Shown here piece after piece: positions 1,585 through 41,134 of a DNA stretch of 64,000 nucleotides. Both the position numbers and the translations under genes were made by a program. Source of the stretch: an uncultured virus (IMG/VR IMGVR_UViG_3300037010_000217) (Duplodnaviria; Heunggongvirae; Uroviricota; Caudoviricetes); IMG/VR virus record IMGVR_UViG_3300037010_000217; one strand, written 5' to 3'. Within the stretch, counting starts at the first letter, position 1. Every line of letters starts with the position of its first letter. The notes under the pieces were generated by a model. It searched no databases and was not told where the DNA came from. It saw nothing but the letters and a program-made list of their open reading frames with translations.

Positions 1585-2988
1585 ATGGGAAGATTTTTAA
1601 CATCTGCGTCTAGCTCAGCTAGTGCTACTGACCTGAACCCTAGTTTACAAGTAGGTACTCCTAAGCAGTTAGAGGCAGGTAAGCCTCGTGCTTGTTATGC
1701 AATGCTGTCATACAACACAGCGACTACTTGGTATGGTGCTACGTTCTATGACAGATTCTTTCAGCCTGTAGTAGCGAATACGTATGATTATAGTAATAAT
1801 TCGGCTATCGCTGGTAACAACTTCTTTGTTTCAGATAGTACAAACCAGTATGGAGCACAGGTTTTCAGTAGTGTTGGTGCCACTCAAACTGTACCTGGTA
1901 GCGTAGGCACAAGCAATTTCATGAATGCTACTAATGCGTCTGGTGAGTTAGGTAACTCGATGGTGGATGTATTCTCTAATAGTACCTTAGCAACTACTTT
2001 GTCTCGTTCATCTAGTTGGAACATTAAACATTACACTAACTCATATGCCATAAATAGTAACCACAAAGATAGAGGTACTGTTTATGTAATGGTTGGTAAT
2101 GTGTTCCGTGCTATCTCTCGTATTGATGGAGACTATTCATACAACCGTCGAGGCACGTCTCATTACACTATTAGTGGTGTAAACACTAGTATGTGGGGTT
2201 CTGCTTCATATAATAAAACTCGTAATGAACTAGTTATCCTTAGCTATGTAGGCTCTAGTGGTGCTTTTAAGCTAATCACTTATAAAGGTATCGACTTTGA
2301 TACGTATCCTTCACCACACCTAGCATTTACAGCGACAGGTGTTACTCGTACAGAGATTTCTAGTTTTACACTAGGTGCTAACTGGAATACTAATGATAGT
2401 GAGAGTTACTATAATATTAAGCCTGTATTGACTGATGACGGTACGATCTTTACTACAGTGATGTTTACGAGTAGTGCATTTAGTATTTACAAAACAGTAC
2501 GTTCATCTGATGCGACAACAATTACCAGTAGCGCATATCAGACTGCTTATAGCTTGACTACATCTTATGGTAAAGGAACTGATATATACTACGGACAACG
2601 AACGATTGGCTCTCGTGATGGTAATGCTGTTATTGCCTTCTGTCCGTATTACTATTATGGTTCTGGTGTCTATTCTTACGTAATTGATCGTACTAATAAT
2701 ACATACTATCAACCTACATTCATGAATAGTGGTAATAGTAGTATCGGCTTTGCCACAGTCCCTTATGGTGATGATGGTTTTGCTACGTTCTACTGCGGAA
2801 ATGGTTACGCAGGTAACTACACTGGTAACTACATCACAGGTATTTGTAACCGTAATGGTATGGGTGTATTTGAGCAGTCAGGTACAAACATCTATATGCC
2901 ATATCATACAGGTCCAAACACTACCAACTACCCAGGCTTTACCCAAGTAACTGACTATGCTATGTTAACCAATCAGACCGTGATCTAA
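1585..2988 (+). CDS. Putative receptor-binding/tail tip protein
   Basis: 467 aa, Ser/Thr/Tyr/Asn/Gly-rich beta-type composition; AGGAG RBS; tail block. Confidence 0.55.
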   Translation: MGRFLTSASSSASATDLNPSLQVGTPKQLEAGKPRACYAMLSYNTATTWYGATFYDRFFQPVVANTYDYSNNSAIAGNNFFVSDSTNQYGAQVFSSVGATQTVPGSVGTSNFMNATNASGELGNSMVDVFSNSTLATTLSRSSSWNIKHYTNSYAINSNHKDRGTVYVMVGNVFRAISRIDGDYSYNRRGTSHYTISGVNTSMWGSASYNKTRNELVILSYVGSSGAFKLITYKGIDFDTYPSPHLAFTATGVTRTEISSFTLGANWNTNDSESYYNIKPVLTDDGTIFTTVMFTSSAFSIYKTVRSSDATTITSSAYQTAYSLTTSYGKGTDIYYGQRTIGSRDGNAVIAFCPYYYYGSGVYSYVIDRTNNTYYQPTFMNSGNSSIGFATVPYGDDGFATFYCGNGYAGNYTGNYITGICNRNGMGVFEQSGTNIYMPYHTGPNTTNYPGFTQVTDYAMLTNQTVI

Positions 2989-2998
2989 GGAGGTCAGT

Positions 2999-3466
2999 AT
3001 GTATGTTGTAATTTCAAATAATGCTGTAAACATTACAGATAGTTTAGATGGTTTAATGGATGGTACAGAGCACACTGTATTAGAATTGAAGGAGGGGGAT
3101 TCAACCCTCGCCCTTCGTTATGCTCTAGTTGATGGTAAGATCATTGACCAGTTTGAAGGTAAAACTGATGAACAGGTATTAGCACAGATTCTGGCAGACG
3201 CTGAAGCTGCTCAGGCAGAAGTAGTTGCTGCTCCAGTACCTAAAGCGCCTATTACTAAGTTAGCTTTCATGGATCGTTTCACTATGAATGAATTAGCAGG
3301 TATCTATACTGCAGCTAAAACTGAAGTGATGATCGAAGTGTTCTTGGATAAGTTAAAGCTATCAACAGAAATTGATTTATCAGATGCTAACACTATTGCA
3401 GGTGTTAATGCTCTTGCTACGGCAGGTTTGTTAACTACTGATCGTGCTAAGGAAATCTTAGCATGA
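2999..3466 (+). CDS. Tail fibre assembly-like protein
   Basis: C-terminal 'ITKLAFMDRFT..E...I.TAAK...LLT.DRAKEILA' pattern common downstream of fibre genes. Confidence 0.55.
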   Translation: MYVVISNNAVNITDSLDGLMDGTEHTVLELKEGDSTLALRYALVDGKIIDQFEGKTDEQVLAQILADAEAAQAEVVAAPVPKAPITKLAFMDRFTMNELAGIYTAAKTEVMIEVFLDKLKLSTEIDLSDANTIAGVNALATAGLLTTDRAKEILA

Positions 3467-15772: not shown

Positions 15773-16201
15773 ATGACAGAATTAAAGAGTTCCTGGGATA
15801 ACTCTAATACTTTTGATCCCGCTGAGGCAACAAGTTTGGCTACCACCAATCCTGCTTACACTATATCTTTAGGGGATGCTTCAAATGCCCCTTGGTTACA
15901 GAAGCTACTCGAACCTGTAGGTGGCTTTTCTGGATTTAAAGATTTAGCTGGTGGTATTGGTAGTTTAGGGAATATGTGGATGGGCAGTCAAGCTTTAGAT
16001 CTAGCTAAAAGAAACTCTGATGCTCAAATTGGTACAATGCGTACTAATTTACATAATACAGCACAAGCTTTTAATTCAACTTTAGGTGATAAATCTAGAT
16101 ATATAGCATCTATGTACGGAAGTCCTGATTCTAATTCACAAGCTTATAAAACTGCATATAATAATTACTATAATCAGTATAAAGCTTCAGAAACAGTATA
16201 A
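15773..16201 (+). CDS. N4 gp52-like small ejection protein
   Basis: Gly-rich amphipathic segment, no Cys, synteny. Confidence 0.6.
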   Translation: MTELKSSWDNSNTFDPAEATSLATTNPAYTISLGDASNAPWLQKLLEPVGGFSGFKDLAGGIGSLGNMWMGSQALDLAKRNSDAQIGTMRTNLHNTAQAFNSTLGDKSRYIASMYGSPDSNSQAYKTAYNNYYNQYKASETV

Positions 16202-16222: not shown

Positions 16223-18886
16223 ATGGCTCATTTAGCAGCTCCACAGCTACAGTGGCAAGAAGTTAGTGCACCTAATAATAGTACAGGTGTGCGAGATATT
16301 ATGGGTGCTGCTTCACTATTTGATAAAGCTATTCAAGGCTTTACAGATATTGCAGATAGACGTATGGATAAGAATACTGTAGATGCACTAGCTAAGATTA
16401 GAGCTGCTGATCCAACTGGTTTACGTACTGATATTGCTGCACAAGCCTACCAAGATGCTGTAGCTAATGCAGGTGGTAATCTTAACCTAGATAAGTTACA
16501 GACTGGTTATGATGTTCTAGATACACGTATGCAGAACAACCTTAATCAATTCCAAGATAGAAACTTGAAAACCCAAGAAATGTCTAATGCTGAAGATGCT
16601 AGACAAGCTAACTTAGGACTTGAACGCGGTAAACTTGGAGTTCAAGAACAGGCACGTTTAGATCAATTAGCATATCAAAATGCATCTCTTGGTGTACAAA
16701 AATCACAGCAAGCTCTAGCTGCACAGAGATTACAAGCTGAGATGGCTGAAAAGGGTATGGTATTTAGGAATGGTGCATGGGGATTTGATACTTCTACTCC
16801 ATCGACTGCACCTGTAGGCTCTTCAACTAATGCTCTGGGTACACCTACAGATCCTCTAAGTGTTGATGATATGTTCAATCCTGGATCAGGTACATCTCCT
16901 CAAACACCTTCTGTAGGTAGCTCTCCAGCACCTATTTCAAAAACTCCAGTAACATCTAATCCAGTAGATCCAGTAAAACCTACTACACCTGCAGTAGGTG
17001 CTTCACCAGTACCAGTTGTAAAAAATCCAGTAGCAACTACTACAGATAATACAGATGTTGCTAATACACTTACTGCAGCTTTTAATACACCATCTGCAGA
17101 AGATACTACTGCGTATAATCCAGTAAAACCTGCTGAAGCTCCTTTAGCTGCTAATGTCCAAGCAGCTTTAAATAAAGCTGTAGATATGCAGTATAGTGAT
17201 GATCCTAAAATGCAACAAATGGGTAGAGCTATGGAGCAATCTTTAAGAGCTTCTATAGCCCAATCTACTGCACCAGTAAAAACTGGTTATAAAGGTGTAG
17301 ACGTTGAGGGTATGCAGAATTTAGCACAAGCTGCTAAAGATAAACGTGCTGCAGAGATCTTAGCTAATAAAAGTTCAGATAGTGCTTTAGATAGAATCTA
17401 TGGTTCAGCTCAAGAAAATCCTGTAGCAGCATCTCTTACGGGAGCTTTAGCTCTTCCTGCAGCAGTTCTTGGAGCAGGTCCAGAAGCAATTACAAGTGCA
17501 GTAGCTGGCGGTGGTGCTATGCTTAGGAATGGTGCAACTACAGCAGCCACTAAAGTTTTTGATAAGCTTGAACCTTATGCACAAAAAGGTATAAATGCTG
17601 TAGAAAATGTAATCGGTAAAATATCATCACCACTTAAAGGTGAGAGTTTAAGAACTCAAACAGAGAATGCTGTTAAAAATTTAGAAACCTTAAAGGCTGG
17701 TAGTAACGCAACTCCTGAAGCTCTTGCTCAAGCAGAAGCTAAAGCAGCAGAACTGACTAGAAAACTAGGTAATAGAGATATGCTTGGTACTGGCATTGCT
17801 ACAGCAGGTACTGCTTATGGTATTGGCAGTATGCTTGGTGGTGATACTACTCCAACTAAAGATCCAGTAAAAGCAGCTCTAACTGCACCTACTACTACGC
17901 CTACTGGAAGTAACTTACCTGCTACTGTAAATATGCCTGATAGTGAAATAGCTGCAGCAGAACAAGCAGTTAAAGCTGCAGATCAACTTACTCCTGAGAG
18001 TATTAAGGCTCAAGCAGAAGCTGTCAATAAAGATGCTACATTACGTAATACGTATTCACAAACTTTACTTAAGAATGGTTATGTAGTGCAGGATCCTAAA
18101 ACAGGTAAATATAGTCTTGATGAAGCTAATATTGTCCGTGGTTTAGCTAAAGGTGATGTAAATGCTTATATAGCTGCAGAACAGTTTAAAACTAGAACTG
18201 ATGCAAATTATACTGCAGCAGCTGCTGATGTAACTAATATAGAAGCAAAAATTGCCCAGTTAAAAGCTGCTAGACCTGGAATGTCTGCAGCACATCCTAT
18301 GTATAGAGATTTAAATGATCAGCTGATTGATGCTAAGCAACGGCAAGCACTTCTACAAAATACTAGGGAAGCTAAGAGTGGTGTATATGCCAAGTATAAG
18401 GAACAACATGATATTAATGTTTCAGAAAGTACGAAAGCAAGGGATAACCTAAGATCTCTACAGAATGAGCAGCTTAAAACTAACTTAAAACATGCAGGTA
18501 TTATAGAAGATGCTTCTAAGACACCTACGCAAATAGTACAAGATGCTATGTCAGGTACTAAAGAGAAACCTACAATTAATGCAAGTGACTTAACACCTAT
18601 CGTAGACACTGTAACAGCTTATAATAAACAAGCATATGCTAATCATAGACCTACTATGAATCTTAAATACTTAGGTGAATTATTAGAACATGCAAAACGT
18701 GAAGATGATAAATGGCTTAGTACTTCAGATTTTGGTGATGTATTAGCAAATAGTGATGATCCTAGAATTCCTGAAGATTTGCGTAGATATTTTAAAAGTT
18801 TGAAGGGTATGGAATTAAGTGGTGGTTTGGTTGATATGCATGATGACTTTGTAAATAAAGGTAGAACTTTTTTACAAGGTAGATAG
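16223..18886 (+). CDS. N4 gp51-like internal virion/ejection protein
   Basis: 'LQWQEVSAPN' N-terminus; Ala/Gln-rich with Pro/Thr linker; no Cys; directly upstream of vRNAP. Confidence 0.6.
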   Translation: MAHLAAPQLQWQEVSAPNNSTGVRDIMGAASLFDKAIQGFTDIADRRMDKNTVDALAKIRAADPTGLRTDIAAQAYQDAVANAGGNLNLDKLQTGYDVLDTRMQNNLNQFQDRNLKTQEMSNAEDARQANLGLERGKLGVQEQARLDQLAYQNASLGVQKSQQALAAQRLQAEMAEKGMVFRNGAWGFDTSTPSTAPVGSSTNALGTPTDPLSVDDMFNPGSGTSPQTPSVGSSPAPISKTPVTSNPVDPVKPTTPAVGASPVPVVKNPVATTTDNTDVANTLTAAFNTPSAEDTTAYNPVKPAEAPLAANVQAALNKAVDMQYSDDPKMQQMGRAMEQSLRASIAQSTAPVKTGYKGVDVEGMQNLAQAAKDKRAAEILANKSSDSALDRIYGSAQENPVAASLTGALALPAAVLGAGPEAITSAVAGGGAMLRNGATTAATKVFDKLEPYAQKGINAVENVIGKISSPLKGESLRTQTENAVKNLETLKAGSNATPEALAQAEAKAAELTRKLGNRDMLGTGIATAGTAYGIGSMLGGDTTPTKDPVKAALTAPTTTPTGSNLPATVNMPDSEIAAAEQAVKAADQLTPESIKAQAEAVNKDATLRNTYSQTLLKNGYVVQDPKTGKYSLDEANIVRGLAKGDVNAYIAAEQFKTRTDANYTAAAADVTNIEAKIAQLKAARPGMSAAHPMYRDLNDQLIDAKQRQALLQNTREAKSGVYAKYKEQHDINVSESTKARDNLRSLQNEQLKTNLKHAGIIEDASKTPTQIVQDAMSGTKEKPTINASDLTPIVDTVTAYNKQAYANHRPTMNLKYLGELLEHAKREDDKWLSTSDFGDVLANSDDPRIPEDLRRYFKSLKGMELSGGLVDMHDDFVNKGRTFLQGR

Positions 18887-18940: not shown

Positions 18941-21900
18941 ATGTCTGAACTGAATCGCTATATTGATGCGTTAAATGAACACAACTGGGATAAAGTCAAT
19001 GATAGCGGTTCAGATGCTTCAGTGAACCCTGATACTAGTGCGTCTACTTTAACAGATAAGATTAGAACTTTAGGTGAATCTTTTCAGAATAAAGTTAGTA
19101 AGCTTGGTTTACAACCTCAACTCATTACGCCTAATAATATGCTTGATGGCGATACCTTTAGAATTGATGGTGTATCTACACGTTTATCTAGAATTGATAC
19201 TCCAGAAACTCATATTAATGATAAAGTTTCAAAGATTAAAGCAGCTCAAGACTTACAATTAGCTTTAGGTAATAGAGCTGCACAATTTGGTCAAGATTGG
19301 TTACAGCAGAATCCAGATACAGTAATTACACCTAAAGGTACTGATATCTATGGTAGACAGATAGGCGATAATGAAGCCTATCAAGATGCTATGCTTAGAA
19401 GTGGTAATGCTGTACCTTTCTACAGATATGATGCTCCAGGTCAAGAGTTAAGAAGACAAGCAAGTATGGATGCATACCATGCTGCAGGTGATCAGATAAC
19501 ACCTGAAATGCAAGCAATGGATGCTATCAATAATTACAATGCTGGTAAAGATTCTCAAAGTGTTCTTGATAGTGTTAAAAAGATGCCTTCAGCTTTTATG
19601 GCAGGTGCTCAGAGTACAGGTGCTGAATTATTAGATCTTCTATCAGAAGTTCCTGCAGCAGGTTTAAGAGCTGTCGGTGCTGATAACATGGCTAACAGTG
19701 TATCAACATACTTTGATGCTGCTAAAGACTCTAATAAAGCTGCTGAAGACCAGAACTATGATAATCGTGAAGCTCAGTATAGATTATCTGAAGCATCTAA
19801 AGATTGGCAACAAGGTAACTACAGTGGTGCTATCTCTAATGCTTTAGCAGTGGGTCCTGAATTAGTCGCCCAAAGCTTACCATTTATGTTCGAATTGATG
19901 TTTGGTGTAGGTGGTAAAGCTAAAGCAGCTAAAGCATTATATGAGGAAGCTATTGCTTCAAAAGATGCTGCTAAGATTGAAAAAGCTACTGAAGGATTAA
20001 ACTCTCTTACATTAACAGATAAGGCTAAAGATCTTATTGGTAATAATGCTGGTTTACTAGCTGGTTCAGGTCAGATGACCAATACTGACATTGAGAAGTT
20101 TACTGAAAACAATAATGGCGTAGCACCAGATGCATTAGATAGAGCTAGAATGTTTGGTACTGAGTTAGGTTCTAACTTACTCGACAAGCTTATGTTTAAA
20201 GCTGAAACAGCAGCTAAACCAATAACTGATGCTGTACTAGGTGATGTTCATACAGCTGTTAAAGTACCTTTAGCTGTTACTGCTGCAGGTGCAGGTGAAG
20301 CTGGACAAGAGTATCTGCAAACAGGTGCTCAACAAGTTAACCAAAATTGGGGTGCTAAAGGTCAGACATTAGATCAAGTGCTAAATGATCCTAAATTAGC
20401 TGAAGAACGTAGACAAGCTGCATTAGGTGGTATGGCTGCAGGTGCTAATATATCTGGTACTGGATATGCTGCACAAGGTGCTTATGATGCTGTCGCAAAA
20501 GGCTCAGGTTACGTTAATAACAAGTTAGAGACCAAAGCTGCATTCAATGCTGAAAACCCTAGCTATGTAGCTCAAAATAAAGCTATGCAGGGCAATGCTG
20601 ACTTATCTCCACTATTGGCTGTAGATCCAGAAACAAGCATAGCTAAAGGCTATGTAGATGAAGTTAAAAATGAAGATGGTACAGTAACCAAAACACCTTA
20701 TAACCCATTACAAAGAATGGCAGATGTTATCAATGAGTTCCAAGATAAACATTCTAAATTAACAGAAATCTTTAATTCACCAGAAGTAGCCGAAGCTAGT
20801 GGTGATGCTACAGATTTAAATAATCCAGAGCATGTTGCTGATATGATGTACAACGCTCTAGGTACATATAATGAGAAGTTAGATAAGACTGCTAAAGAAG
20901 CTACAGAATTTGCTACAGAACTATTAGGTAGTGGTAAATTAACTGAGGGTCAGCGTAATGCTATTAATGGTCAGCTTAAGGCTATTGAACAAGCTAAGAT
21001 TGAATTCCAAAATGAGGAGAATAGTACCTTAGTTAAATACTATGATCAGTACATTAATAAGACTGATGATCCAACAGTACAAGCAAAAGCTGCTCAGGCT
21101 CAGGCTGAAGTTACTATAAATAGTGTTACTAAAAATAGAGAAGACTTTGTACGAGATCCAGAAAGAGCACAAACTGCTTTAGATAGATTGACTAAAGGTA
21201 TTGAATTACAGACTAGCAGTGATAGTGAACAACGTGTTGCAGCTAAAGAAGTAAGTGCAGCATCTAAAAAGCTTTTAGAAACTTTAAGAGGAATTAAGGC
21301 TAGAGAAGATGCTAGTAATCCAGAAAATTCTAGTGGCTCATCTAGTGAGTCTGTAAGTAGAGGATTACATGGTACTCCTAAAGGTACACAGTACTCAGGT
21401 AAACTTGAAAAGGGTATCCCTGATAAAACCATCTATAAAGTTACATCTGAGATACTGTTTGGAACTCCTTCAGGAAACAAAGATAAACATAGAGGTGTAT
21501 TACAAGCTACAGCTCAAGTAGCTAAGTATAATGCTATATTATCTTCAGATACTTCTACAGCTTCTGCTAAATACAATGCTGCTGAGAAGTTACACGATCT
21601 CGTAGATAGTCTTACTAAGTTTCATGATAGTCATACAGAAAAGCTTAAAACAATTAAAAATAGAGAATTAAAAGAGCATGTACGCAGTATTGAAATACCT
21701 GCTATTGCTGCTGTTCTGAATCTAGCTAAGAAAACTGCAAGTCTTCATAAAGATACTCATACTATAGCTGCTGAAGACATTATGGATCAGGTTTTAGCTA
21801 ATCCAAAAAATACAGATAAACATTTGTACAGCGAATATCGTAATCATGCTATAGCTCGTAATAATGAACTCGGCTGGAAAGAGCCTTCAGATAGAGTAGC

Positions 21901-24900
21901 AGAAGATACTATTAGAAATCTTTTAACTAGACAATCTGCAGAACTAAGAAAACGTGCTACAGAGAGTAAAAACTTACGTAAAGCTAATATTGAATCTTTA
22001 CATAAACCAGGAGCAGTAAAGACTTCTACATTTACTGCAGTAGATCACAATGGCGAAACTCAAGCAGTTAATTTATCTAGTTTCGTGGATACTAAGAAAG
22101 AACCTAACAATAGTCTTGTAGCCTTTGGAGAAGTAAAACAAACAGCTCTAGATTCTATTACAAGTAGTGATACATCTAAAAATAGTGTTAAACCAGTTAC
22201 CATATCTATACAGTCTGATGTTATTTTAGGCAATGATTCATATCAGAAAGCAGTTGAAGAACTTGCTGCAGAAATAGATAGTAAACCAAGTGCTATTCAA
22301 AGTGCAGAAGATGCTGCTAAGAAAGCTGAAGCTAATAAGACTGTTAGAGAGTCTATAATTAATGCTGTAATGCGTTTAGCTAAATTAGGTACTGAAGCAG
22401 TTAATGATCCTAGAAACTTTATTGCAAGAATAAGTGCTGATGACAAGAACGTTAAACGTTTAAACAACATTAATGATGCTGATAATCCTAATGGTATTGT
22501 TAAGCCTTTAAAACTATTATTAGGTCTTAGCGCACAAAATAAACTTACGTTACCTCCTAACGTAGCTTTAGCTGCATCTGCTGCTGTACTTGAATATATT
22601 AAGTCTTCTGGATCAACAATTGGTTACAGAACTGATGATGATGTAATGAAAGCGTTTGGTATTCCTTTTGTTAACTCTGATCCTGTAGCACAGATGTCGA
22701 TGTCTAAGTTAAAGAGTTTAGGTACACTTAGATCAGTAGCTGCTAAAGAGATCGGTAGAACTATCTACAATGCTTTAAATCTTAAGATGAAGGGCGATGC
22801 ACCATCTAACCTAGAAGCTCAGCTTATAGGAGCTTTAGGAGGCCTTGCAATAGAGATGGCTGTAGCAGACGGTATCCTTGCATATAGAGAAATTCCTGTT
22901 GAAGACTTACAGACAGATATTAAAAATGCTGGCGGTCCAGGTCAAAAAGTAAAAGATAAAGATGCTAAAGTAGGTTTCATTACTTACAATCGCAAGAATA
23001 AAGACAGCAATACTAAGCTACGTGAAGAATTACGTGACGCAGGTTCAGTATTTAAAGCTGTTCTAGGTGAAGCATTCGTATCTAGAAAGACTGGTGCTAC
23101 ATTAGAACCAGATGCTAAAGTAACTGCTAAAGCTAACAAAGGTTTAGATGTACCTGCAGCTATTGTTAAAGTCTTAACTAAGATTGCTGAGAAGACAACT
23201 TATAAGTTTAACCCTCAAGCTATGAATAACCTTTATACAGATGGTAAGGTTGATTGGGACAAAGCTGTAAACGTAGTAACTAGTATTACTGGATTACCTA
23301 ACTTAACTGCAGAAGTCTTAAGATATGAAAATGCTAGAGACAAGTGGGCTAAAGACAACTTTAACATTAGCATTAGAGATTTCCAAAAATCTATTCTAGA
23401 AGGTGAACTCTTACAGATTGCTAAGCTAGACGAAGCTGTAAATAACCTAGGTGGTTATGATATTGTAGTCTCTGAAGGTTTCCCAGGATTTAAGCTTCCT
23501 AGAATTGTATGGAAACAAGGACGTGTTGGTATTGAATCATCTGATATCAATATCCAAGAGAGTAAGCTTCATAGATCTATGGTTCAAGTTACAGGTACAT
23601 ACACTAAAGTATCTGGTCCAAAGGGTGCAACATCTAACTATAACTTAACAAGACTTGCAGTATTAGCAGGTGTAGATGAGAAGAAATCTCCTTATGAAGT
23701 TGTAGAGGTAATGAACTCTATCAATACTGAATTAAAGGATTTAGTCGCTACAGATACTGGAAAACTTATTACAGCCATTAAAGCATTTAATGAGAATCCA
23801 ACAGTAGAAACAGCACAAGCTATTAAAAAGTTATTACCTGAAGGAAGTCTATTAGAGAAAGCTATTGAAGATGGTTATGATGGAATCACTGGTGCATATG
23901 AATTAGGTAACACTATTCTTGCAATGGTTGAACCTACCCATACATATGAGTCTAGAATCAATATTGAGACAGACGGTGTTACTAACGGGTTTGGTTTCTC
24001 ATTAGCGTTTAACCCTATTTTTAGTGATCCACAGAATACCATTAGTTATCTTGAGAAAGTAGGTATTAACTTCTATGGTGAAGCTGGAGTTGATCCAGTA
24101 ACTAACGGTATCCAAGCTGCAAGAGAGAAAGCTAAGAATGGTGGTACACCATTTACAGATAGTTATCAGACACTAGCATCTGCTCTTGTAGCAGCTTTAA
24201 GAGGTGATACATCAGTAGACCTTTCTAAGTTAAGTAAACTATTCCCTAAGATCTTTATTCTTAATGGGGATATGTACGATATTGCTCGTGACTTTACTAA
24301 GAACCCTTTCATGGTATTCAACTATGGTTCAGCTATTAAGTCTATCAAAGAAGGTGTAAAAACAAACTTATATTACAAACTTCTAGGTGAAATATCTAAA
24401 GCTCAGAGAGAAGGTGACATAGCTAGATTGAATGATATTGCTAAAACGTTATTTAACAGTGAAGCTGAACAGAAAAAATTCATGTCTAACCCTTTAGAAT
24501 ATAAGTTAGAAAGATCTATTCTAGATAATATGACTGCTCCTGTAGCTGATCACATGGGTAATATTATTGAACAGCAGATCGGTGATCTTATACTTCCTAA
24601 AGAGATTGTTAATGCTACATTCAATAGACAGATGGCAATCTATAGACAGGTAATGAAGTACGAATTAGATAAAGTACGTGGTGATAGTAACAGAGTCTTA
24701 ACTGTTGATGAAGTTAAAGCAGTAATTGATAAGGTGTCTCCATTTATCCCTAGATTTAATCACATTGATGATTACATCTCAGGTAGAGGTAAAGATAAGT
24801 TTAAAGAAGGTTGGCCTGCATTTAAGCTACAGCCTGGAGATACAACTAATACAGAGATTGAGATGGTGTTCTCTACATCTACTCAGAAGTCTATGAAATA

Positions 24901-26428
24901 TAACGTTTCTGATAAAGAGTTGGCTGAAGCAGGCGTATCTGGTTACGTACTTATGGTTCATAATGCTGATGGGCATGTAATGACTCAGTCTCTAAGTAAA
25001 CTAGTAGATCAAGACATATCTGTATTAGACGTACATGATGCTGTCAAAGTAGGTGCGCAGCAAATTGAACCAGCAGCTACAGAACTCAATACAGCATTTG
25101 GTGATGTAGTTAGTAAGTACTCTATTGTAGATAATGCTCTACAATCTCTTGAAGGAGCTTATGAAAAAGTTTTCCAAGAGTATGGTCTATTATTTGGTAA
25201 TGATAGAGCTAATATGGTTAGACTTGTACATAAAACTCTAGATAAAGAGTCAGATACTAATGGTATATTTGATAAGATCGCTAAGTACAATAAGAATTTA
25301 GCTGTATTTAATAAGCTTGTAGAAGATAGATATGCAGATGGTACTTTAGTTATTTCTCAATATGCTGGTTTAGGCGGTAAAGGTAATATTGCACTAAAAC
25401 CAAGTGCTTTCATTAAGCCTCTAATTAACATTGCAGATGATTCTATTCTAGCTTTAGGTAGAGATACTAGTAAGAGTGAAGCTAATGCTATGTACGCTGC
25501 TGTAGAGCCTGCACATACAGTTTTGCCAGTAGATCAGGATAAACTGGATGAAGTGGTTAATATAACTAAAACTGCAGGGCCTAATGACAATGTTTTAAGT
25601 ACAATAGGTACTATGCTTGAAACTGGTTTAGTCAGTAATGAAACTCATAGGGCTGTTCTTTCTACTCTGTTGGATCAGTTATCTTTAATCCAAGCTGGTA
25701 GAGAAAGAAAAACTAATAAAACTCAAGAAGATACAGCTGCTGATGCTAAAGTAGCTAATGCAATGAAAGTACTAAAAGGGATTACTCAAACTAATGTTGT
25801 TACAAATAAAGAAGTGTTAGCAGGTATTAAAACACTGCTTACAGCTTACTTTGATACATTGTTAAAATCTGGTAATAAAGATACTCAAGCATTAAAAGCT
25901 ATTAAACATATCGTACCTTTACTGAGTGAAACAGCAGGTATTAATGCTAGAGTTAATGCTAATAATTCTAACCTAGGTGAGATACTTGCATCTGTATTTA
26001 CAGCTCCTGAAAACTTTGAAGCTGTAGCTAATAGTCAGATTATGGCTAGAGATGCTACACTTAAAGCTCAACCTAGCTCTATTACGTTTAAAGTAGATAA
26101 AGCTCCAGTAGAAGGTAAAGTTGTAACTCCATCGATGATTACTCACCTTAAAAGAGCTTTAACTGATATGTTTAATGGTATCACTAGTTCAGATAAAGGC
26201 TTTAAAGAGTATGAAGAAAATAAGACTACAATTAACACTATGGGTGAATTGGTAGATCTTATAGCTACTGTTACAGCTAACAAAACTAGAAATGCTGAAG
26301 GTGACTTCAAAGGTGATTCTAGTATTTTAGCTAGAGCTGACATAGCTTTGAGTAAAGTACAGGACTCTGCTAGAATAGATGCTCTTAAGGCTCTACATAC
26401 TAAATATTTAACTGAAGGTGACTGTTAA
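18941..26428 (+). CDS. Virion-encapsidated RNA polymerase, N-terminal and catalytic part, with N-terminal SNase-like domain
   Basis: vRNAP motifs 'KQGRV', A 'ETDGVTNG', B 'RDFTKNPFMVFNYGS', C 'DVHDAV'; SNase-like 'DGDTF...RLSRIDTPE...DIYGRQI'. Confidence 0.9.
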   Translation: MSELNRYIDALNEHNWDKVNDSGSDASVNPDTSASTLTDKIRTLGESFQNKVSKLGLQPQLITPNNMLDGDTFRIDGVSTRLSRIDTPETHINDKVSKIKAAQDLQLALGNRAAQFGQDWLQQNPDTVITPKGTDIYGRQIGDNEAYQDAMLRSGNAVPFYRYDAPGQELRRQASMDAYHAAGDQITPEMQAMDAINNYNAGKDSQSVLDSVKKMPSAFMAGAQSTGAELLDLLSEVPAAGLRAVGADNMANSVSTYFDAAKDSNKAAEDQNYDNREAQYRLSEASKDWQQGNYSGAISNALAVGPELVAQSLPFMFELMFGVGGKAKAAKALYEEAIASKDAAKIEKATEGLNSLTLTDKAKDLIGNNAGLLAGSGQMTNTDIEKFTENNNGVAPDALDRARMFGTELGSNLLDKLMFKAETAAKPITDAVLGDVHTAVKVPLAVTAAGAGEAGQEYLQTGAQQVNQNWGAKGQTLDQVLNDPKLAEERRQAALGGMAAGANISGTGYAAQGAYDAVAKGSGYVNNKLETKAAFNAENPSYVAQNKAMQGNADLSPLLAVDPETSIAKGYVDEVKNEDGTVTKTPYNPLQRMADVINEFQDKHSKLTEIFNSPEVAEASGDATDLNNPEHVADMMYNALGTYNEKLDKTAKEATEFATELLGSGKLTEGQRNAINGQLKAIEQAKIEFQNEENSTLVKYYDQYINKTDDPTVQAKAAQAQAEVTINSVTKNREDFVRDPERAQTALDRLTKGIELQTSSDSEQRVAAKEVSAASKKLLETLRGIKAREDASNPENSSGSSSESVSRGLHGTPKGTQYSGKLEKGIPDKTIYKVTSEILFGTPSGNKDKHRGVLQATAQVAKYNAILSSDTSTASAKYNAAEKLHDLVDSLTKFHDSHTEKLKTIKNRELKEHVRSIEIPAIAAVLNLAKKTASLHKDTHTIAAEDIMDQVLANPKNTDKHLYSEYRNHAIARNNELGWKEPSDRVAEDTIRNLLTRQSAELRKRATESKNLRKANIESLHKPGAVKTSTFTAVDHNGETQAVNLSSFVDTKKEPNNSLVAFGEVKQTALDSITSSDTSKNSVKPVTISIQSDVILGNDSYQKAVEELAAEIDSKPSAIQSAEDAAKKAEANKTVRESIINAVMRLAKLGTEAVNDPRNFIARISADDKNVKRLNNINDADNPNGIVKPLKLLLGLSAQNKLTLPPNVALAASAAVLEYIKSSGSTIGYRTDDDVMKAFGIPFVNSDPVAQMSMSKLKSLGTLRSVAAKEIGRTIYNALNLKMKGDAPSNLEAQLIGALGGLAIEMAVADGILAYREIPVEDLQTDIKNAGGPGQKVKDKDAKVGFITYNRKNKDSNTKLREELRDAGSVFKAVLGEAFVSRKTGATLEPDAKVTAKANKGLDVPAAIVKVLTKIAEKTTYKFNPQAMNNLYTDGKVDWDKAVNVVTSITGLPNLTAEVLRYENARDKWAKDNFNISIRDFQKSILEGELLQIAKLDEAVNNLGGYDIVVSEGFPGFKLPRIVWKQGRVGIESSDINIQESKLHRSMVQVTGTYTKVSGPKGATSNYNLTRLAVLAGVDEKKSPYEVVEVMNSINTELKDLVATDTGKLITAIKAFNENPTVETAQAIKKLLPEGSLLEKAIEDGYDGITGAYELGNTILAMVEPTHTYESRINIETDGVTNGFGFSLAFNPIFSDPQNTISYLEKVGINFYGEAGVDPVTNGIQAAREKAKNGGTPFTDSYQTLASALVAALRGDTSVDLSKLSKLFPKIFILNGDMYDIARDFTKNPFMVFNYGSAIKSIKEGVKTNLYYKLLGEISKAQREGDIARLNDIAKTLFNSEAEQKKFMSNPLEYKLERSILDNMTAPVADHMGNIIEQQIGDLILPKEIVNATFNRQMAIYRQVMKYELDKVRGDSNRVLTVDEVKAVIDKVSPFIPRFNHIDDYISGRGKDKFKEGWPAFKLQPGDTTNTEIEMVFSTSTQKSMKYNVSDKELAEAGVSGYVLMVHNADGHVMTQSLSKLVDQDISVLDVHDAVKVGAQQIEPAATELNTAFGDVVSKYSIVDNALQSLEGAYEKVFQEYGLLFGNDRANMVRLVHKTLDKESDTNGIFDKIAKYNKNLAVFNKLVEDRYADGTLVISQYAGLGGKGNIALKPSAFIKPLINIADDSILALGRDTSKSEANAMYAAVEPAHTVLPVDQDKLDEVVNITKTAGPNDNVLSTIGTMLETGLVSNETHRAVLSTLLDQLSLIQAGRERKTNKTQEDTAADAKVANAMKVLKGITQTNVVTNKEVLAGIKTLLTAYFDTLLKSGNKDTQALKAIKHIVPLLSETAGINARVNANNSNLGEILASVFTAPENFEAVANSQIMARDATLKAQPSSITFKVDKAPVEGKVVTPSMITHLKRALTDMFNGITSSDKGFKEYEENKTTINTMGELVDLIATVTANKTRNAEGDFKGDSSILARADIALSKVQDSARIDALKALHTKYLTEGDC

Positions 26429-29400
26429 TGGCTTGTAATGATCTAGTAGCTGCTGTGAAAGCAGCAGTATCTGATGGTGATAATAGTGTCACAGGATTCT
26501 CTTTATATGATGCAATCCAGGTAGCTAGATTATTTGAGCATCAGAAGTTGCTAGGACAAGTAGCGGCAGAGTCAGCAACCTATGTTAGTGACAGTTTAGG
26601 TACTAAAGCATCTTTTAAAGGTTGGGCTGTTGATTCAGAAGAGACTAGAGCAATCAGAGAAAAAAGATCTGAAGACTTCAAAAAAGCTAATAAAGAAGAC
26701 ACTTCTAAAACTGAGTCAGATACTTCTAAATCTAATTATAAACCTAAAACTAGAAATGGTGGTCTTGTAAGTAAACTACTAGCAGGTTTAATTAAAGCAG
26801 ATAGTAATTTTGTGTTTAGAAGAGTTAAGAGTGCTGAGGATACTCCGTATAAAGGATATGCCTATAGAAGAAAATCTAAAGTAGCTGGTAAACCTAGTCC
26901 TACTAAATCAGTTACGATTAGACGTAAGCCGAAGCCTGATACAAGTAAATCATCTGCATTTGATACAGATGGATTTGGTATGCCTATAGAAACTCTAAGA
27001 GTTACTCAGGATACGTTAAATGAAACATATGCAGTAGTCAGTACACTAGATAACTTATCTATCTCTACAGAACACGCAGAGCACTTAAATAACATTAACA
27101 ATTCACTTATTACCCAAGGCTTTGGTAGATTAGGTGAAGTAATCGTTGAAGTTATGCGAAGCAACGGAATCATGAATGGTGGTGAATTTAACTATGCAAC
27201 TAAAGTAAGTAAGCTATACGCTTCTACTGCTAGTAAACTTTTACCTGGAATGTCATTAAGAGAAGCACACATACATGAATTACTTCATGGTGTATTACCG
27301 CCATTGTTATTAGAAGATTCTAAGTTACTGACTGAGTTAAGTAACTTTCATGCATTAGCTGCTAAGACATTAAATAAAAATGGTAAAGGTTACGAGATAT
27401 TCTTGCATAAAGATGCATCAGGCAATCCAGTATATCTAACAGATAAAGCTGAAGAAATCAAAGCTGCTAGAGAAACTTGGGACTATATCTTTAACTCTAC
27501 AGATGTTAAAGGTAGCAATAAAATCAATTCAGGGTTACTAGAGTTTCTAGCCTATGGTTTAACCAATGAGAATATGGTTAATGCTTTGAAGAATATGGCA
27601 GATACTACTACAACTACCTCAGCCATTGCAGAGTCTTTAACACCTAAAGGTGATTCTATATTTAGTAGAATCGTTAAGGCTATCCTAACTGCTGTGGATC
27701 GTTTGGTTAATGTATTAAGTAAGAATAATAGTGCCAATGGTTATGAAAAGCTCTATGGCATTGCAACTGCTATGATTAATCAACAGAATGCTGTACAAGA
27801 AAATCGTATAGAAGCTGTTCTTAAGAATACGGGTATTAATATCTTAAATGAAAAGATGCTAGAACCTTTAAACAATAAGGTTAGTAAACTAGTTAAAGAT
27901 GCTAATGTAGATAGATTTTTAGATTTTGTATCTAATACATCAGCCAGTACACCTATCAGTTCATCTAGTAAAGATACTCTTACAGCTACACAGAAATCTA
28001 TGTATAGAGCTGCATACATTAAAACAGCAATGGCTATGACTAATGCTTCATATCTACAAGCCAATACTCAAGCAAGTTATATTAATAGCTGGGAAGATGT
28101 AGCTAGATCTAATAGTTTCTTGATGCACGAAGCAGTTAATGGTATTGGTTTAATAGGACATCTATCGAGAGCTTTACGTAATGAACATCCATTACTAGAG
28201 CCAATTATTAAATTACATAGCATGGCTAAAGCTAAACGTGAAGTAGTTCGTAAACACTTTGGTGATACAGCTATGAATGAATTTGATAATGCTTGGTTAT
28301 TCCCTTTAACTGAAACAGATAAAGAGGTTGTAGGTAGAGCAAGTTTTGCTACAGATATGCAGTCTTTAACTAAGTATTACACCCATAAAGAGATTAGAGA
28401 ATTCATTGATTCACCTCAAAGTCTTAAGACTAAGATTTATTCACTACAATCTACTATTGAACACCTAGTACCCAATACAGCACATAGTACAGCTCTTATA
28501 AATCAAGCTAAGAGTATTGGTTATTTGATGGTAGATAATAAGACTCCATTAGCTAATTCGGCAAGAAATATTGATGTAGCTATTAATACTACTATTAAAA
28601 CTTTTGGTAAGAATAAATCTATTGCAGAGAATAGAGCTAGCATATACAAAGCTATGGATAGTTTAGCTACGCTAGTAGCGTACTCTAGATTAGATGATAG
28701 TACTCAAACAAGTTATAAAGCTATTTGGGATAGAGAGTTTAGTAAAAGTAATACTCATAACGGTATTACCAATATGCATCTAATGCTTAATAGTTATGCT
28801 GAACAGTCTAAGAAGTCTTTATTTAAGAATTCAAACGCACTTCTTACTAAGGGCCACTATCCTCAGATGTATGCTAAACATATTGAGTATACAGTAGCTG
28901 ATGTATCTAAATCTCTAGAATTACGTAAACAGGGTTGGGAACCAACTGGTAAGCGTATGCAAGATCCTATCTCAGGTGTAGATAAAGAGTTCTATACTAA
29001 ACGTATCAATAGTAATGATGCTTTAACATCAGGTGTATTTGGTGTAGATAGTTTCCATAGCAGAGGTACTAAGTTATCAGATCTGTTAATTCAAAACCAA
29101 GGATTTGATGCAGCTAAAATTAGAGCGTATATAGATGAGTTAACTTATAAGCAAACACAATTAGCTAAGAACCAAAATACCCTTGGTTTATTTGCTAAGG
29201 ATGCTAAAGGTGCTTCTCATAGATATGTACCTATTAGAGATGCTAATAGTAACATTGTTGATTACGCTATTGTGATGAATGATGTAGAACAGGTTAAATA
29301 CTTAGGTAAAAGCTATAATGCATCAAACTTGATCCAAAGTATGTATATGACAAATGCTTCTAAAGAAGCTACTATGGAATTGAATCCAGTAGTAGTAAAA

Positions 29401-30615
29401 GAACTCCAGAAGATCTATAGAGACAATCCTACACGTAAGCATGAGTTTACGTTAGTACATGGTGAAGAGAAGAATGCTGATGGGTCTCCTAACGAGACCT
29501 TAGAATACTATCGTATGTTACCTAGTGCTACTAGACAGCTTATACCAAACGGTATTCATGTGCCTAAAGCAGCTATTAACATACTGTTTGGTGGTAGAAA
29601 AATCTCTTTAGCAGACACTTGGTTAGTTAATTATGCTCAAGAGAAGTTCCCTGATTTCCCAATTAAGAAATGGGTGTCTACAGCTCAAACTGTTTGGCAA
29701 GAAATCGTAGCTTCAGATAAGACATTTATCGTAATAAAGTCACCTAAAGTAGTAGTTAACAACACAATCTCTAATACTAATATCTTATTAGTAGAAGGTC
29801 TAGCTCCTGTAGATATACAGAAGTATTACACAGATGCATTTACACACATCAGAGCTTATGAGAAGGCTATGCAAGAGTTGTATGCTATTAAAGCTAAGAT
29901 TAACTCTACAACATTACAACCTCATAGCATACAGGTAATGCAGTCTAGAGCTAATGTATTAGAGAAGCAAGTTAAGGCTAACCCTATATATGAGTTAGTA
30001 GAAGCTGGCATGTACCAGACAGTAGCTGAAGATGCATCTACTCTTCAATATGGTTACATGGATGATCTAGGTAACTATATTAAAAAGAATGCTCAAGAAA
30101 TTGTTGGCAAAGCTGCTACAGATTTCGGAGAAGCTGTGTTTAATAACGTAATGCTCACAGGTAATAGTCCTGTGTTTAAATTACTAAATAAAGCTACTCA
30201 GTATAGTGATTTGATCGCTAGATATGCATTAATGCAACATCTAGGTAAAGATAAGAGTATGTCCAAAGAAGCACGTAATAAGATAGTATTAGATACATTT
30301 ATTAACTATGATTTGCCAGATCCTAAGTCATTAACATTTCTTAATGATATGGGCTTTATGATGTTTACAAAGTTTTTTGTAGGTATTCAAAAAGTTATTG
30401 CAAGACAAGCTAAGAAGCGTACAGCAAGCCTAGCATTAGACTTAGCTGTACAAACATTCCCAGGATTGGATTTAGATGACATTACAGAAAGTTCTATTTT
30501 CTTTAAGAACTATGCTCAAATGATACATTTAAATCCACTGGATCACCTGGAGCATTTTACAACTCCAGGCTTATATCAAACAGTTAAACAAACTACAGAT
30601 ATGCTTATCCCATAG
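26428..30615 (+). CDS. Separate gene for the vRNAP C-terminal region, with zincin-like HExxH domain
   Basis: 'HELLH...EFLAYGLTN'; end 'QYSDLIARY...FINYD...LNDMGFMMF' resembles N4 gp50 C-terminus; TAATG overlap and AAGGTG RBS. Confidence 0.8.
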   Translation: MACNDLVAAVKAAVSDGDNSVTGFSLYDAIQVARLFEHQKLLGQVAAESATYVSDSLGTKASFKGWAVDSEETRAIREKRSEDFKKANKEDTSKTESDTSKSNYKPKTRNGGLVSKLLAGLIKADSNFVFRRVKSAEDTPYKGYAYRRKSKVAGKPSPTKSVTIRRKPKPDTSKSSAFDTDGFGMPIETLRVTQDTLNETYAVVSTLDNLSISTEHAEHLNNINNSLITQGFGRLGEVIVEVMRSNGIMNGGEFNYATKVSKLYASTASKLLPGMSLREAHIHELLHGVLPPLLLEDSKLLTELSNFHALAAKTLNKNGKGYEIFLHKDASGNPVYLTDKAEEIKAARETWDYIFNSTDVKGSNKINSGLLEFLAYGLTNENMVNALKNMADTTTTTSAIAESLTPKGDSIFSRIVKAILTAVDRLVNVLSKNNSANGYEKLYGIATAMINQQNAVQENRIEAVLKNTGINILNEKMLEPLNNKVSKLVKDANVDRFLDFVSNTSASTPISSSSKDTLTATQKSMYRAAYIKTAMAMTNASYLQANTQASYINSWEDVARSNSFLMHEAVNGIGLIGHLSRALRNEHPLLEPIIKLHSMAKAKREVVRKHFGDTAMNEFDNAWLFPLTETDKEVVGRASFATDMQSLTKYYTHKEIREFIDSPQSLKTKIYSLQSTIEHLVPNTAHSTALINQAKSIGYLMVDNKTPLANSARNIDVAINTTIKTFGKNKSIAENRASIYKAMDSLATLVAYSRLDDSTQTSYKAIWDREFSKSNTHNGITNMHLMLNSYAEQSKKSLFKNSNALLTKGHYPQMYAKHIEYTVADVSKSLELRKQGWEPTGKRMQDPISGVDKEFYTKRINSNDALTSGVFGVDSFHSRGTKLSDLLIQNQGFDAAKIRAYIDELTYKQTQLAKNQNTLGLFAKDAKGASHRYVPIRDANSNIVDYAIVMNDVEQVKYLGKSYNASNLIQSMYMTNASKEATMELNPVVVKELQKIYRDNPTRKHEFTLVHGEEKNADGSPNETLEYYRMLPSATRQLIPNGIHVPKAAINILFGGRKISLADTWLVNYAQEKFPDFPIKKWVSTAQTVWQEIVASDKTFIVIKSPKVVVNNTISNTNILLVEGLAPVDIQKYYTDAFTHIRAYEKAMQELYAIKAKINSTTLQPHSIQVMQSRANVLEKQVKANPIYELVEAGMYQTVAEDASTLQYGYMDDLGNYIKKNAQEIVGKAATDFGEAVFNNVMLTGNSPVFKLLNKATQYSDLIARYALMQHLGKDKSMSKEARNKIVLDTFINYDLPDPKSLTFLNDMGFMMFTKFFVGIQKVIARQAKKRTASLALDLAVQTFPGLDLDDITESSIFFKNYAQMIHLNPLDHLEHFTTPGLYQTVKQTTDMLIP

Positions 30616-32883: not shown

Positions 32884-32958
32884 TGGTAGGACCGCAGGGA
32901 CTTGAACCCTGATTAAACGATTATGAGTCGCCTATTCTAACCTTTGAATTACAGTCCT
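32884..32958 (-). tRNA. tRNA with CAU anticodon, probably Ile2 (lysidine type) rather than Met
   Basis: Cloverleaf with encoded CCA; anticodon arm GGCGA-CTCATAA-TCGTT resembles ileX. Confidence 0.85.
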
Positions 32959-41058: not shown

Positions 41059-41134
41059 TGGTGCGCTTGGAGGGACTCGAACCCCCATAATACGGTGTAG
41101 AAGACCGTTGCATTATCCATTGTGCTACAAGCGC
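41059..41134 (-). tRNA. tRNA-Arg(UCU)
   Basis: Cloverleaf GCGCTTG...CAAGCGCA-CCA; anticodon arm ACGGT-CTTCTAC-ACCGT. Confidence 0.92.

Follow-up and report, generated by a model that had tools for sequence, protein, structure and literature searches.

The virion RNA polymerase (vRNAP) of bacteriophage N4 is packaged in the virion and ejected. Here we describe a vRNAP of this type that is encoded by two adjacent genes in a 64,000-nucleotide stretch of DNA, referred to below as the window, from an uncultured virus assigned to the Caudoviricetes (IMG/VR record IMGVR_UViG_3300037010_000217). The only two cysteines in the two products lie at the ends that face each other across the gene boundary.

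N4 gp50 is a single chain of 3500 residues with no cysteine, as the preliminary description of the window had stated, and the N4 ejection proteins gp51 and gp52 have none either. Structural work presents the whole of gp50 as globular units on flexible linkers, like beads on a string, with a 23-residue linker (2102-2123) that joins the polymerase to the C-terminal domain and is invisible, and reports several copies packaged per virion (PMC13434306). The C-terminal domain is described as required for encapsidation and the N-terminal domain for injection (PMC3821669). Suppression of cysteine throughout the N4-like ejection operon has been linked to passage across the oxidizing periplasm (PMC11445570; the suppression also in PMC3821669). 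How a protein of some 3500 residues leaves through a tail about 35 Å wide is treated as an open question in the papers on N4 and DEV (PMC13434306, PMC11445570).

A vRNAP in two pieces has been reported for Alteromonas phages AltAD45-P1 to P4, as ORF127 and ORF126 of 2481-2495 and 1404-1409 amino acids (PMC3821669; KF005317). The split in AltAD45-P1, a cultured phage, was checked by PCR and resequencing, and gels showed polypeptides of 270 and 175 kDa, under conditions that are not in the text searched (PMC3821669). Its authors counted two cysteines in ORF127 and concluded that the protein is probably not injected; pairing across the junction is not noted in the portions of the article consulted. 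A disulfide between separate ejection proteins has been seen by cryo-electron microscopy (cryo-EM) in cyanopodophage A4 (Anabaena phage A-4L), where gp27 Cys1715 and gp26 Cys5 are bonded in the pre-ejectosome (PMC12002296; PDB 9k3a). In crAss-like phages, RNA-polymerase-associated proteins were identified as virion cargo by mass spectrometry (PMC10172136). The passages of that paper dealing with disulfides in crAss001 concern tail and portal-vertex proteins, not cargo proteins; virions were run both reduced and non-reduced, and the main text is silent on linkage of gp47, gp49 and gp50. The literature thus already covers the suppression of cysteine in ejection proteins of N4-like phages, the existence of split vRNAPs and the disulfide of A4. 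Our searches of PMC open-access articles and bioRxiv found no paper stating a rule of compensating terminal cysteine pairs at the junctions of split vRNAPs or of crAss-like RNA-polymerase proteins.

A virion RNA polymerase divided at a domain linker

Both open reading frames (ORFs) of the divided vRNAP are on the plus strand. Piece 1 (18941..26428, 2495 residues) contains the N-terminal and polymerase domains and matches positions 214-2054 of the 3406 positions of phrog_2206 (E 5.6e-70). Piece 2 (26428..30615, 1395 residues) contains the C-terminal domain and matches positions 2270-3377 of the same family (E 4.7e-131); its residues 597-1325 align with N4 gp50 residues 2724-3435 (structures PDB 9pnr, 11gp). 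Piece boundaries were placed with a profile of 25 one-piece vRNAPs, namely N4 gp50 plus 24 representative proteins. On this profile, piece 1 aligns to about N4 residue 2366 and then continues for 249 unaligned residues, while piece 2 aligns from about N4 residue 2280 and is preceded by 170 unaligned residues. Because the alignments stop and start near these two points, the cut falls in a variable stretch past the polymerase domain, with extra sequence on both new ends. The two ORFs together are an N4-type vRNAP cut at the linker between polymerase and C-terminal domain.

The resemblance to N4 gp50 (PDB 9pnr, 9pnt, 11gp) extends over the N-terminal, polymerase and C-terminal regions at about 25% identity, and includes the suppression of cysteine and a position after two small cysteine-free ejection proteins. 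The difference is that gp50 is one chain of about 3500 residues, whereas the window encodes chains of 2495 and 1395 residues, cut at the equivalent of a gp50 linker, with a cysteine on each new end. Homology, and the position of the pair behind gp52-like and gp51-like genes, suggest that both pieces would be packaged in the virion and ejected.

Piece 1 ends in KYLTEGDC, and its sole cysteine is the last residue, Cys2495 (codon TGT, 26423..26425). Piece 2 begins MACND, and its sole cysteine is residue 3 (codon TGT, 26434..26436). Computed counts agree exactly with the reading by eye in the preliminary description. The stop codon TAA of piece 1 (26426-26428) and the start codon ATG of piece 2 (26428-26430) share one base, and the resulting TAATG (26426..26430) reads as an arrangement for translational coupling. 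A Shine-Dalgarno-like sequence, GAAGGTGA, is read at 26414..26421, 6 nt 5' of the ATG. Fusion of the two ORFs by a -1 frameshift was considered and rejected, since a TGA interrupts the second frame at 26419-26421 and the remaining 7 nt contain no slippery heptamer.

The four ORFs of the ejection operon contain 2 cysteines in 4919 residues, both of them in the 3890 residues of the vRNAP pair and both at the junction. Over the whole window, the 37 ORFs of at least 150 amino acids contain 81 cysteines in 16,674 residues (0.49%). If one cysteine were placed at random in each protein, the probability of finding one at the last residue of piece 1 and the other within the first three of piece 2 would be (1/2495) x (3/1395), or about 9e-7.

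The two vRNAP pieces of AltAD45-P1 are almost equal in size to those of the window. Translation of KF005317 shows an upstream piece that ends in SKHCKQ and a downstream piece that starts MTIC, each with its cysteine as the only one in the piece, just as in the window. AltAD45-P1 differs in being a 104-kb phage, and blastn of the 3 kb around the window junction had no match in the phage collection.

Facing cysteines across the vRNAP family

IMG/VR was scanned with an alignment of 18 short forms, which returned 80 loci. One (L004) was dropped because it duplicates an identical fragment (L001), leaving 79 for analysis. Forty-two are one-piece loci, with a matched ORF of at least 3000 amino acids, and 40 of these have no cysteine (2 cysteines in 145,912 residues). 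Fifteen are split, with 22 junctions among them. The other 22, with ORFs below 3000 amino acids, were left without a class; most run off the contig, while L010, L049, L079 and L082 are closed short calls. The only cysteine among all 22 is in L079, at residue 15 of a call that starts with TTG.

With the window added there are 23 junctions. At 21 of them, the upstream piece has a cysteine 1-4 residues from its C-terminus and the downstream piece has one at residue 3-10, so the conservation of terminal cysteines in split homologs, to which the preliminary description had pointed as a check, is borne out. Counted from the nearest ATG, most downstream pieces begin M-x-C. A valence rule holds in three-piece versions: the first piece has a C-terminal cysteine, the middle piece has one at each end, and the last piece has an N-terminal one. 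Middle pieces of this kind occur in L036, L040, L053 and L081, and also in L046 and L076, which have one extra cysteine each. The outer ends of the chains never carry a cysteine. At one extreme the adjoining genes overlap by 13 nt and at the other they lie 187 nt apart, and because the junction DNA varies so widely the cysteine codons are not a by-product of any one arrangement of start and stop. In alignments of the last 200 amino acids of 14 upstream pieces and the first 600 of 14 downstream pieces, cysteine is the sole invariant terminal column; in the downstream pieces only M1 and C3 are invariant before residue 252, and the flanking termini are unalignable. To judge from these sequences, the facing-cysteine pattern at split junctions is beyond chance.

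Of the two junctions without cysteines, one, in L023, is a frameshift-like overlap of 25 nt (L023:3521-3545) at about N4 residues 1535/1555. The other, in L061, is an in-frame TGA followed at once by ATG (L061:1105-1110), at about N4 residues 1927/1932. Both breaks fall within the polymerase domain, where the pieces adjoin in the profile and have no overhang, and they look like errors or recent breaks. The L023 break is probably an assembly error; for L061 the possibilities are a sequencing error, recoding of the stop and a split of very recent origin.

A second survey used HMMER to search 1.84 billion representative proteins with piece-2 residues 1-1200. It gave 1040 matches, and the following counts refer to the best 150. 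Ninety-eight span the whole profile, and 93 of these have no cysteine (11 cysteines in 347,496 residues). Of the 52 partial representatives, half (26) have a cysteine within the first 10 residues, and in 25 of the 26 it is the only one. Their start points all fall at about N4 residues 851-1063 or 2059-2335, which are the two linker zones, and the median overhang before the conserved part is 81 residues. The 26 partial proteins that lack an N-terminal cysteine have a median overhang of 9.5 residues, and 18 of them begin in the middle of a domain; short overhangs and mid-domain starts are typical of shortened or broken gene calls.

Eight of those 26 do start in a linker zone. P0051 and P0143 have a first residue other than methionine. 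For P0142, P0021 and P0091, cluster mates at 90% identity or more are fused and cysteine-free, with lengths of 3817, 4397 and 4450 amino acids, and for P0126 a longer cluster mate exists. P0015 and P0150 begin at a boundary without an N-terminal cysteine and are unexplained; the sole cysteine of P0150 is residue 383. Among the whole-length proteins, P0033 (3451 amino acids) has a single cysteine at residue 7 of a GTG-started call (VVNNESC), to be explained either by a start called too early or by linkage to a protein encoded upstream.

Recovery of the split junction in other sequencing runs

Logan contigs from four runs (X2, X3, X4 and X5) were compared with the window over 25900-26950; X4 and X5 appear to be a single data set deposited under two entries. 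Contigs from X2, possibly the sample from which the window itself came, show no differences at the junction, and neither do those from X3, which derive from another sample in another study. X4/X5 represent a more divergent strain, with 18 differences in 315 nt upstream and 13-18 in about 190 nt downstream, and its 124-nt contig over the junction has one change, T to C at 26408, in a synonymous leucine codon. No indel occurs at the junction in the contigs of X2, X3 or X4/X5, and the TGT codons of Cys2495 and Cys3 are unaltered in all of them. A single fused ORF, which would have undone the reading given in the preliminary description, is thus absent from these contigs. The X4/X5 strain also has an in-frame 3-nt deletion variant at 26315-26317, about 100 nt 5' of the junction.

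The same signature in unrelated ejection and cargo proteins

The gp27/gp26 pair of A4 consists of adjacent, co-oriented genes, with a cysteine near the C-terminus of the upstream product and one near the N-terminus of the downstream product, and the window pair has the same layout. gp27 (1717 amino acids), encoded upstream, has its sole cysteine at 1715, 3 from the C-terminus, and gp26 (1114 amino acids) has its sole cysteine at 5. The signature is kept in all five members compared (A4, Pf-WMP3, Pf-WMP4, TR020 and CHP58), which are about 25% identical. Neither hmmsearch nor phmmer matched A4 gp26 or gp27 to the vRNAP pieces. The possibility that the gp26 family is related to the C-terminal domain of vRNAPs was rejected after hhalign returned a probability of 0.55%; gp27 was compared by hmmsearch and phmmer only. 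A4 belongs to the Saffermanviridae, has no virion RNA polymerase, and holds these proteins in an ordered pentameric ring, unlike the invisible thread of a vRNAP. The precedent shows what the signature means chemically and not a common descent. A homolog of A4 gp26 in Plectonema phage Pbo-yong3 (OP056300.1) is annotated as 'DNA-directed RNA polymerase'.

For the crAss-like phages, four genomes were chosen across the spread of 90 tblastn matches: crAss001, Dulem virus 41, DAC15 and cr1_1 (L091 to L094). The preliminary description had mentioned large crAss-like virion proteins with cysteine near the start and at the end, and this holds in all four. In crAss001, gp47 has its sole cysteine 3 from the end, gp50 has Cys5, Cys1334 and a cysteine 9 from the end, and gp49 has only Cys5. 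The three colinear genes of Dulem virus 41 read VRCASI at the first C-terminus, then MSYC to KKLC, then MALSC. DAC15 has KECLE at the end of one protein, MSKTC and NKIC at the two ends of the next, and MSKC at the start of the last; cr1_1 has IHCIKS followed by MSIIC. Matching the terminal cysteines gives the chain order gp47 - gp50 - gp49. In crAss001 and DAC15, the gp47 gene is encoded on the strand opposite to that of its two partners. The crAss-like cargo proteins resemble the vRNAP pieces in being giant and in having cysteines at matching ends; they differ in belonging to another polymerase type and in having a few internal cysteines. The same signature is found, then, in three lineages with no detectable sequence relation: split N4-like vRNAPs, Saffermanviridae gp27/gp26 and Crassvirales gp47-gp50-gp49.

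Interpretation of the facing cysteines

The explanation we favor, and think likely on the strength of sequence comparison and the analogy with A4, is an inter-chain disulfide from Cys2495 to Cys3 that ties the vRNAP halves into one thread for packaging and ejection. Translation of the two coupled genes would yield an enzyme already divided at the flexible linker that joins polymerase and C-terminal domains, and in the virion the two cysteines would form a disulfide in place of the missing peptide bond. The linked pieces would then make up one beads-on-a-string thread, packaged 1:1 and drawn through the tail in order, as for N4 gp50. Every other cysteine appears to have been purged from the ejection proteins, as it has throughout the family, so that no wrong cross-link would be possible. 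Packaging and extraction of a polymerase piece that lacks the packaging domain would presumably be unreliable if there were no covalent tie. Oxidation to the disulfide probably takes place after assembly or lysis, once the particle meets oxidizing conditions, and the host cytoplasm probably reduces the bond again. The first 190 or so residues of piece 2 (26428..27006) are unconserved, basic and rich in serine and threonine, with low fold confidence; in the AlphaFold2 model, pLDDT (the model's confidence score) is below 50 over residues 1-193, and this region is a probable flexible tether behind the bond. The preliminary description had proposed that the facing cysteines relink the halves by a disulfide or a metal bridge and release them in the reducing cytoplasm. 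Covalent relinking gains strong support from the family comparison and from A4, while the choice between disulfide and metal, like the cytoplasmic release, stays conjectural.

Several observations weigh against this disulfide. Phage assembly occurs in the reducing cytoplasm. By their labels, the runs that contain this phage are metagenomes of sediment, microbial mat and hydrothermal vent, habitats that may likewise be reducing. Model confidence is low at both termini, with a mean pLDDT of 48.9 for the last 200 amino acids of piece 1 and 45.3 for the first 600 of piece 2, where only the HExxH region reaches 60-87. P0015 and P0150 start at a boundary and have no N-terminal cysteine. The representative set and the IMG/VR loci overlap (P0130, for instance, equals the downstream piece of L005 in length and termini) and are therefore not independent samples. 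Finally, because A4 gp26 has no detectable homology to the vRNAP C-terminal domain, the A4 precedent is an analogy.

Other chemistry could exploit the same two residues. Both thiolates might bridge the halves through a shared metal ion such as zinc, with acidic neighbors as further ligands. Conservation data cannot tell S-S from S-metal-S, and acidic residues often stand beside the cysteine, as in EGDC and MACND in the window and in LEGC, MACQIDE and LEEC at L005, L012 and L014. Many junctions, however, have basic neighbors (CK, CKK, CN); one cysteine per chain supplies two strong ligands only, with no histidine or further cysteine conserved nearby; and the only solved case of the signature, in A4, is a disulfide. 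We regard a metal bridge as improbable. Splicing of the halves into a true single polypeptide, by intein-like trans-splicing or by a ligase that uses the cysteine, draws its appeal from the role of cysteine as the usual nucleophile of protein splicing. Here the cysteine terminates the chain and no intein follows it; Pfam finds no Hint or intein domain, nor any other family, in the whole proteins, and the termini give only sub-threshold noise. Virion preparations of AltAD45-P1 also show two polypeptides, of 270 and 175 kDa, in the published gel (PMC3821669), and we give ligation hardly any credence.

The terminal cysteines might, on the other hand, serve other partners: a second copy of the same piece in a homodimer, another virion protein, or a modification. 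The comparison bears only indirectly on which cysteine pairs with which, and several vRNAP copies are reported per N4 virion (PMC13434306). Against such partners, cysteines are confined to splits and always come in facing pairs (21 of 23 junctions); they never stand at outer ends and hardly ever in one-piece proteins, where a role independent of the split would lead one to expect them too. Nor does Cys3 look like a lipoprotein cysteine: no signal peptide or lipobox precedes it, and there is no room for a signal peptide because it is residue 3, right after Met-Ala. Partners of this kind seem to us as doubtful as a metal bridge. Last, the window could hold a single gene broken by sequencing or assembly error, with cysteines that are chance leftovers or by-products of a start and stop. 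Cysteine-free breaks in mid-domain do exist in metagenomic relatives (L023, L061), and three cysteine-free short representatives have fused mates at 90% identity or more. Yet the window junction recurs in contigs from runs of several studies, has a proper Shine-Dalgarno site and the TAATG overlap, and lies at a domain linker, flanked by roughly 250 unaligned extra residues on one side and 170 on the other; chance placement is about 9e-7 for the window alone, and the cysteine codons are kept across very different junction DNA. An artefact is thus extremely unlikely. None of these rivals explains why the cysteines occur only at splits, on both facing ends, one for each neighbor.

Whether head-to-tail disulfide stitching is a general principle of podophage ejection proteins, each cut in a gene being healed by a cysteine pair, strikes us as an evenly balanced question. 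If it is, the virion would hold a single redox-cleavable thread, and gene order would set the order of ejection. Under the favored disulfide reading, split vRNAPs would amount to a natural experiment in which the covalent connections that are needed turn out to be two inter-domain linkers, each replaceable by one disulfide. Pieces selected to remain one chain would support ejection by threading, as beads on a string. Disulfide stitching would also supply a positive reason for purging the other cysteines, beyond avoidance of periplasmic oxidation, and it points to a redox switch by which the polymerase would part from the packaging domain once inside the cell. The published view that the cysteines of the AltAD45 split polymerase mean no injection would be overturned, and the explanation would extend to crAss-like gut phages, whose cargo proteins cryo-EM could not see.

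Other features of the window

The window belongs to a distant N4-like phage with 35% G+C. Pfam and PHROG scans identify an SU10/N4-type portal, a major head protein, an N4-type RNA polymerase II, a DNA polymerase, a primase and a terminase. Ahead of the vRNAP genes and also on the plus strand, the ejection operon encodes a small protein of 142 amino acids (15773..16201), which matches phrog_2646, a family whose function is not known, and holds the N4 gp52 position by synteny. It is followed by a protein of 887 amino acids (16223..18886) with no match in Pfam or PHROG, which is equated with N4 gp51 by placement only. Neither contains a cysteine, as the preliminary description had stated for the gp51/gp52-like proteins.

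By blastn, a 3-kb stretch over the junction had no match among 50,697 phage records, and a word-based protein search returned only the query itself and one weak match. The sole close DNA relative found is the IMG/VR fragment represented by L001/L004, which is 100% identical and begins at piece-2 residue 167, so that the junction is not covered.

Two further motifs are carried by the vRNAP pieces. The C-terminal domain of piece 2 contains an HExxH motif (H283, E284, H287; 27274..27288, plus strand) that is invariant in 18 of 18 and in 14 of 14 of the C-terminal-domain pieces compared. Its probable counterpart is the zinc-binding motif that has been predicted in the C-terminal part of DEV gp71, at residues 2100-2150 (PMC11445570). 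Residues 81-165 of piece 1 (19181..19435, plus strand) resemble a staphylococcal nuclease domain (PF00565, E 5.8e-5, 23.9 bits against a cut-off of 21), a match that surfaced only when the first 220 amino acids were scanned alone; a nuclease injected together with this polymerase piece would be of interest. Two tRNA genes are present, for tRNA-Met (CAT) and tRNA-Arg (TCT), at 32884-32958 and 41059-41134 (minus strand).

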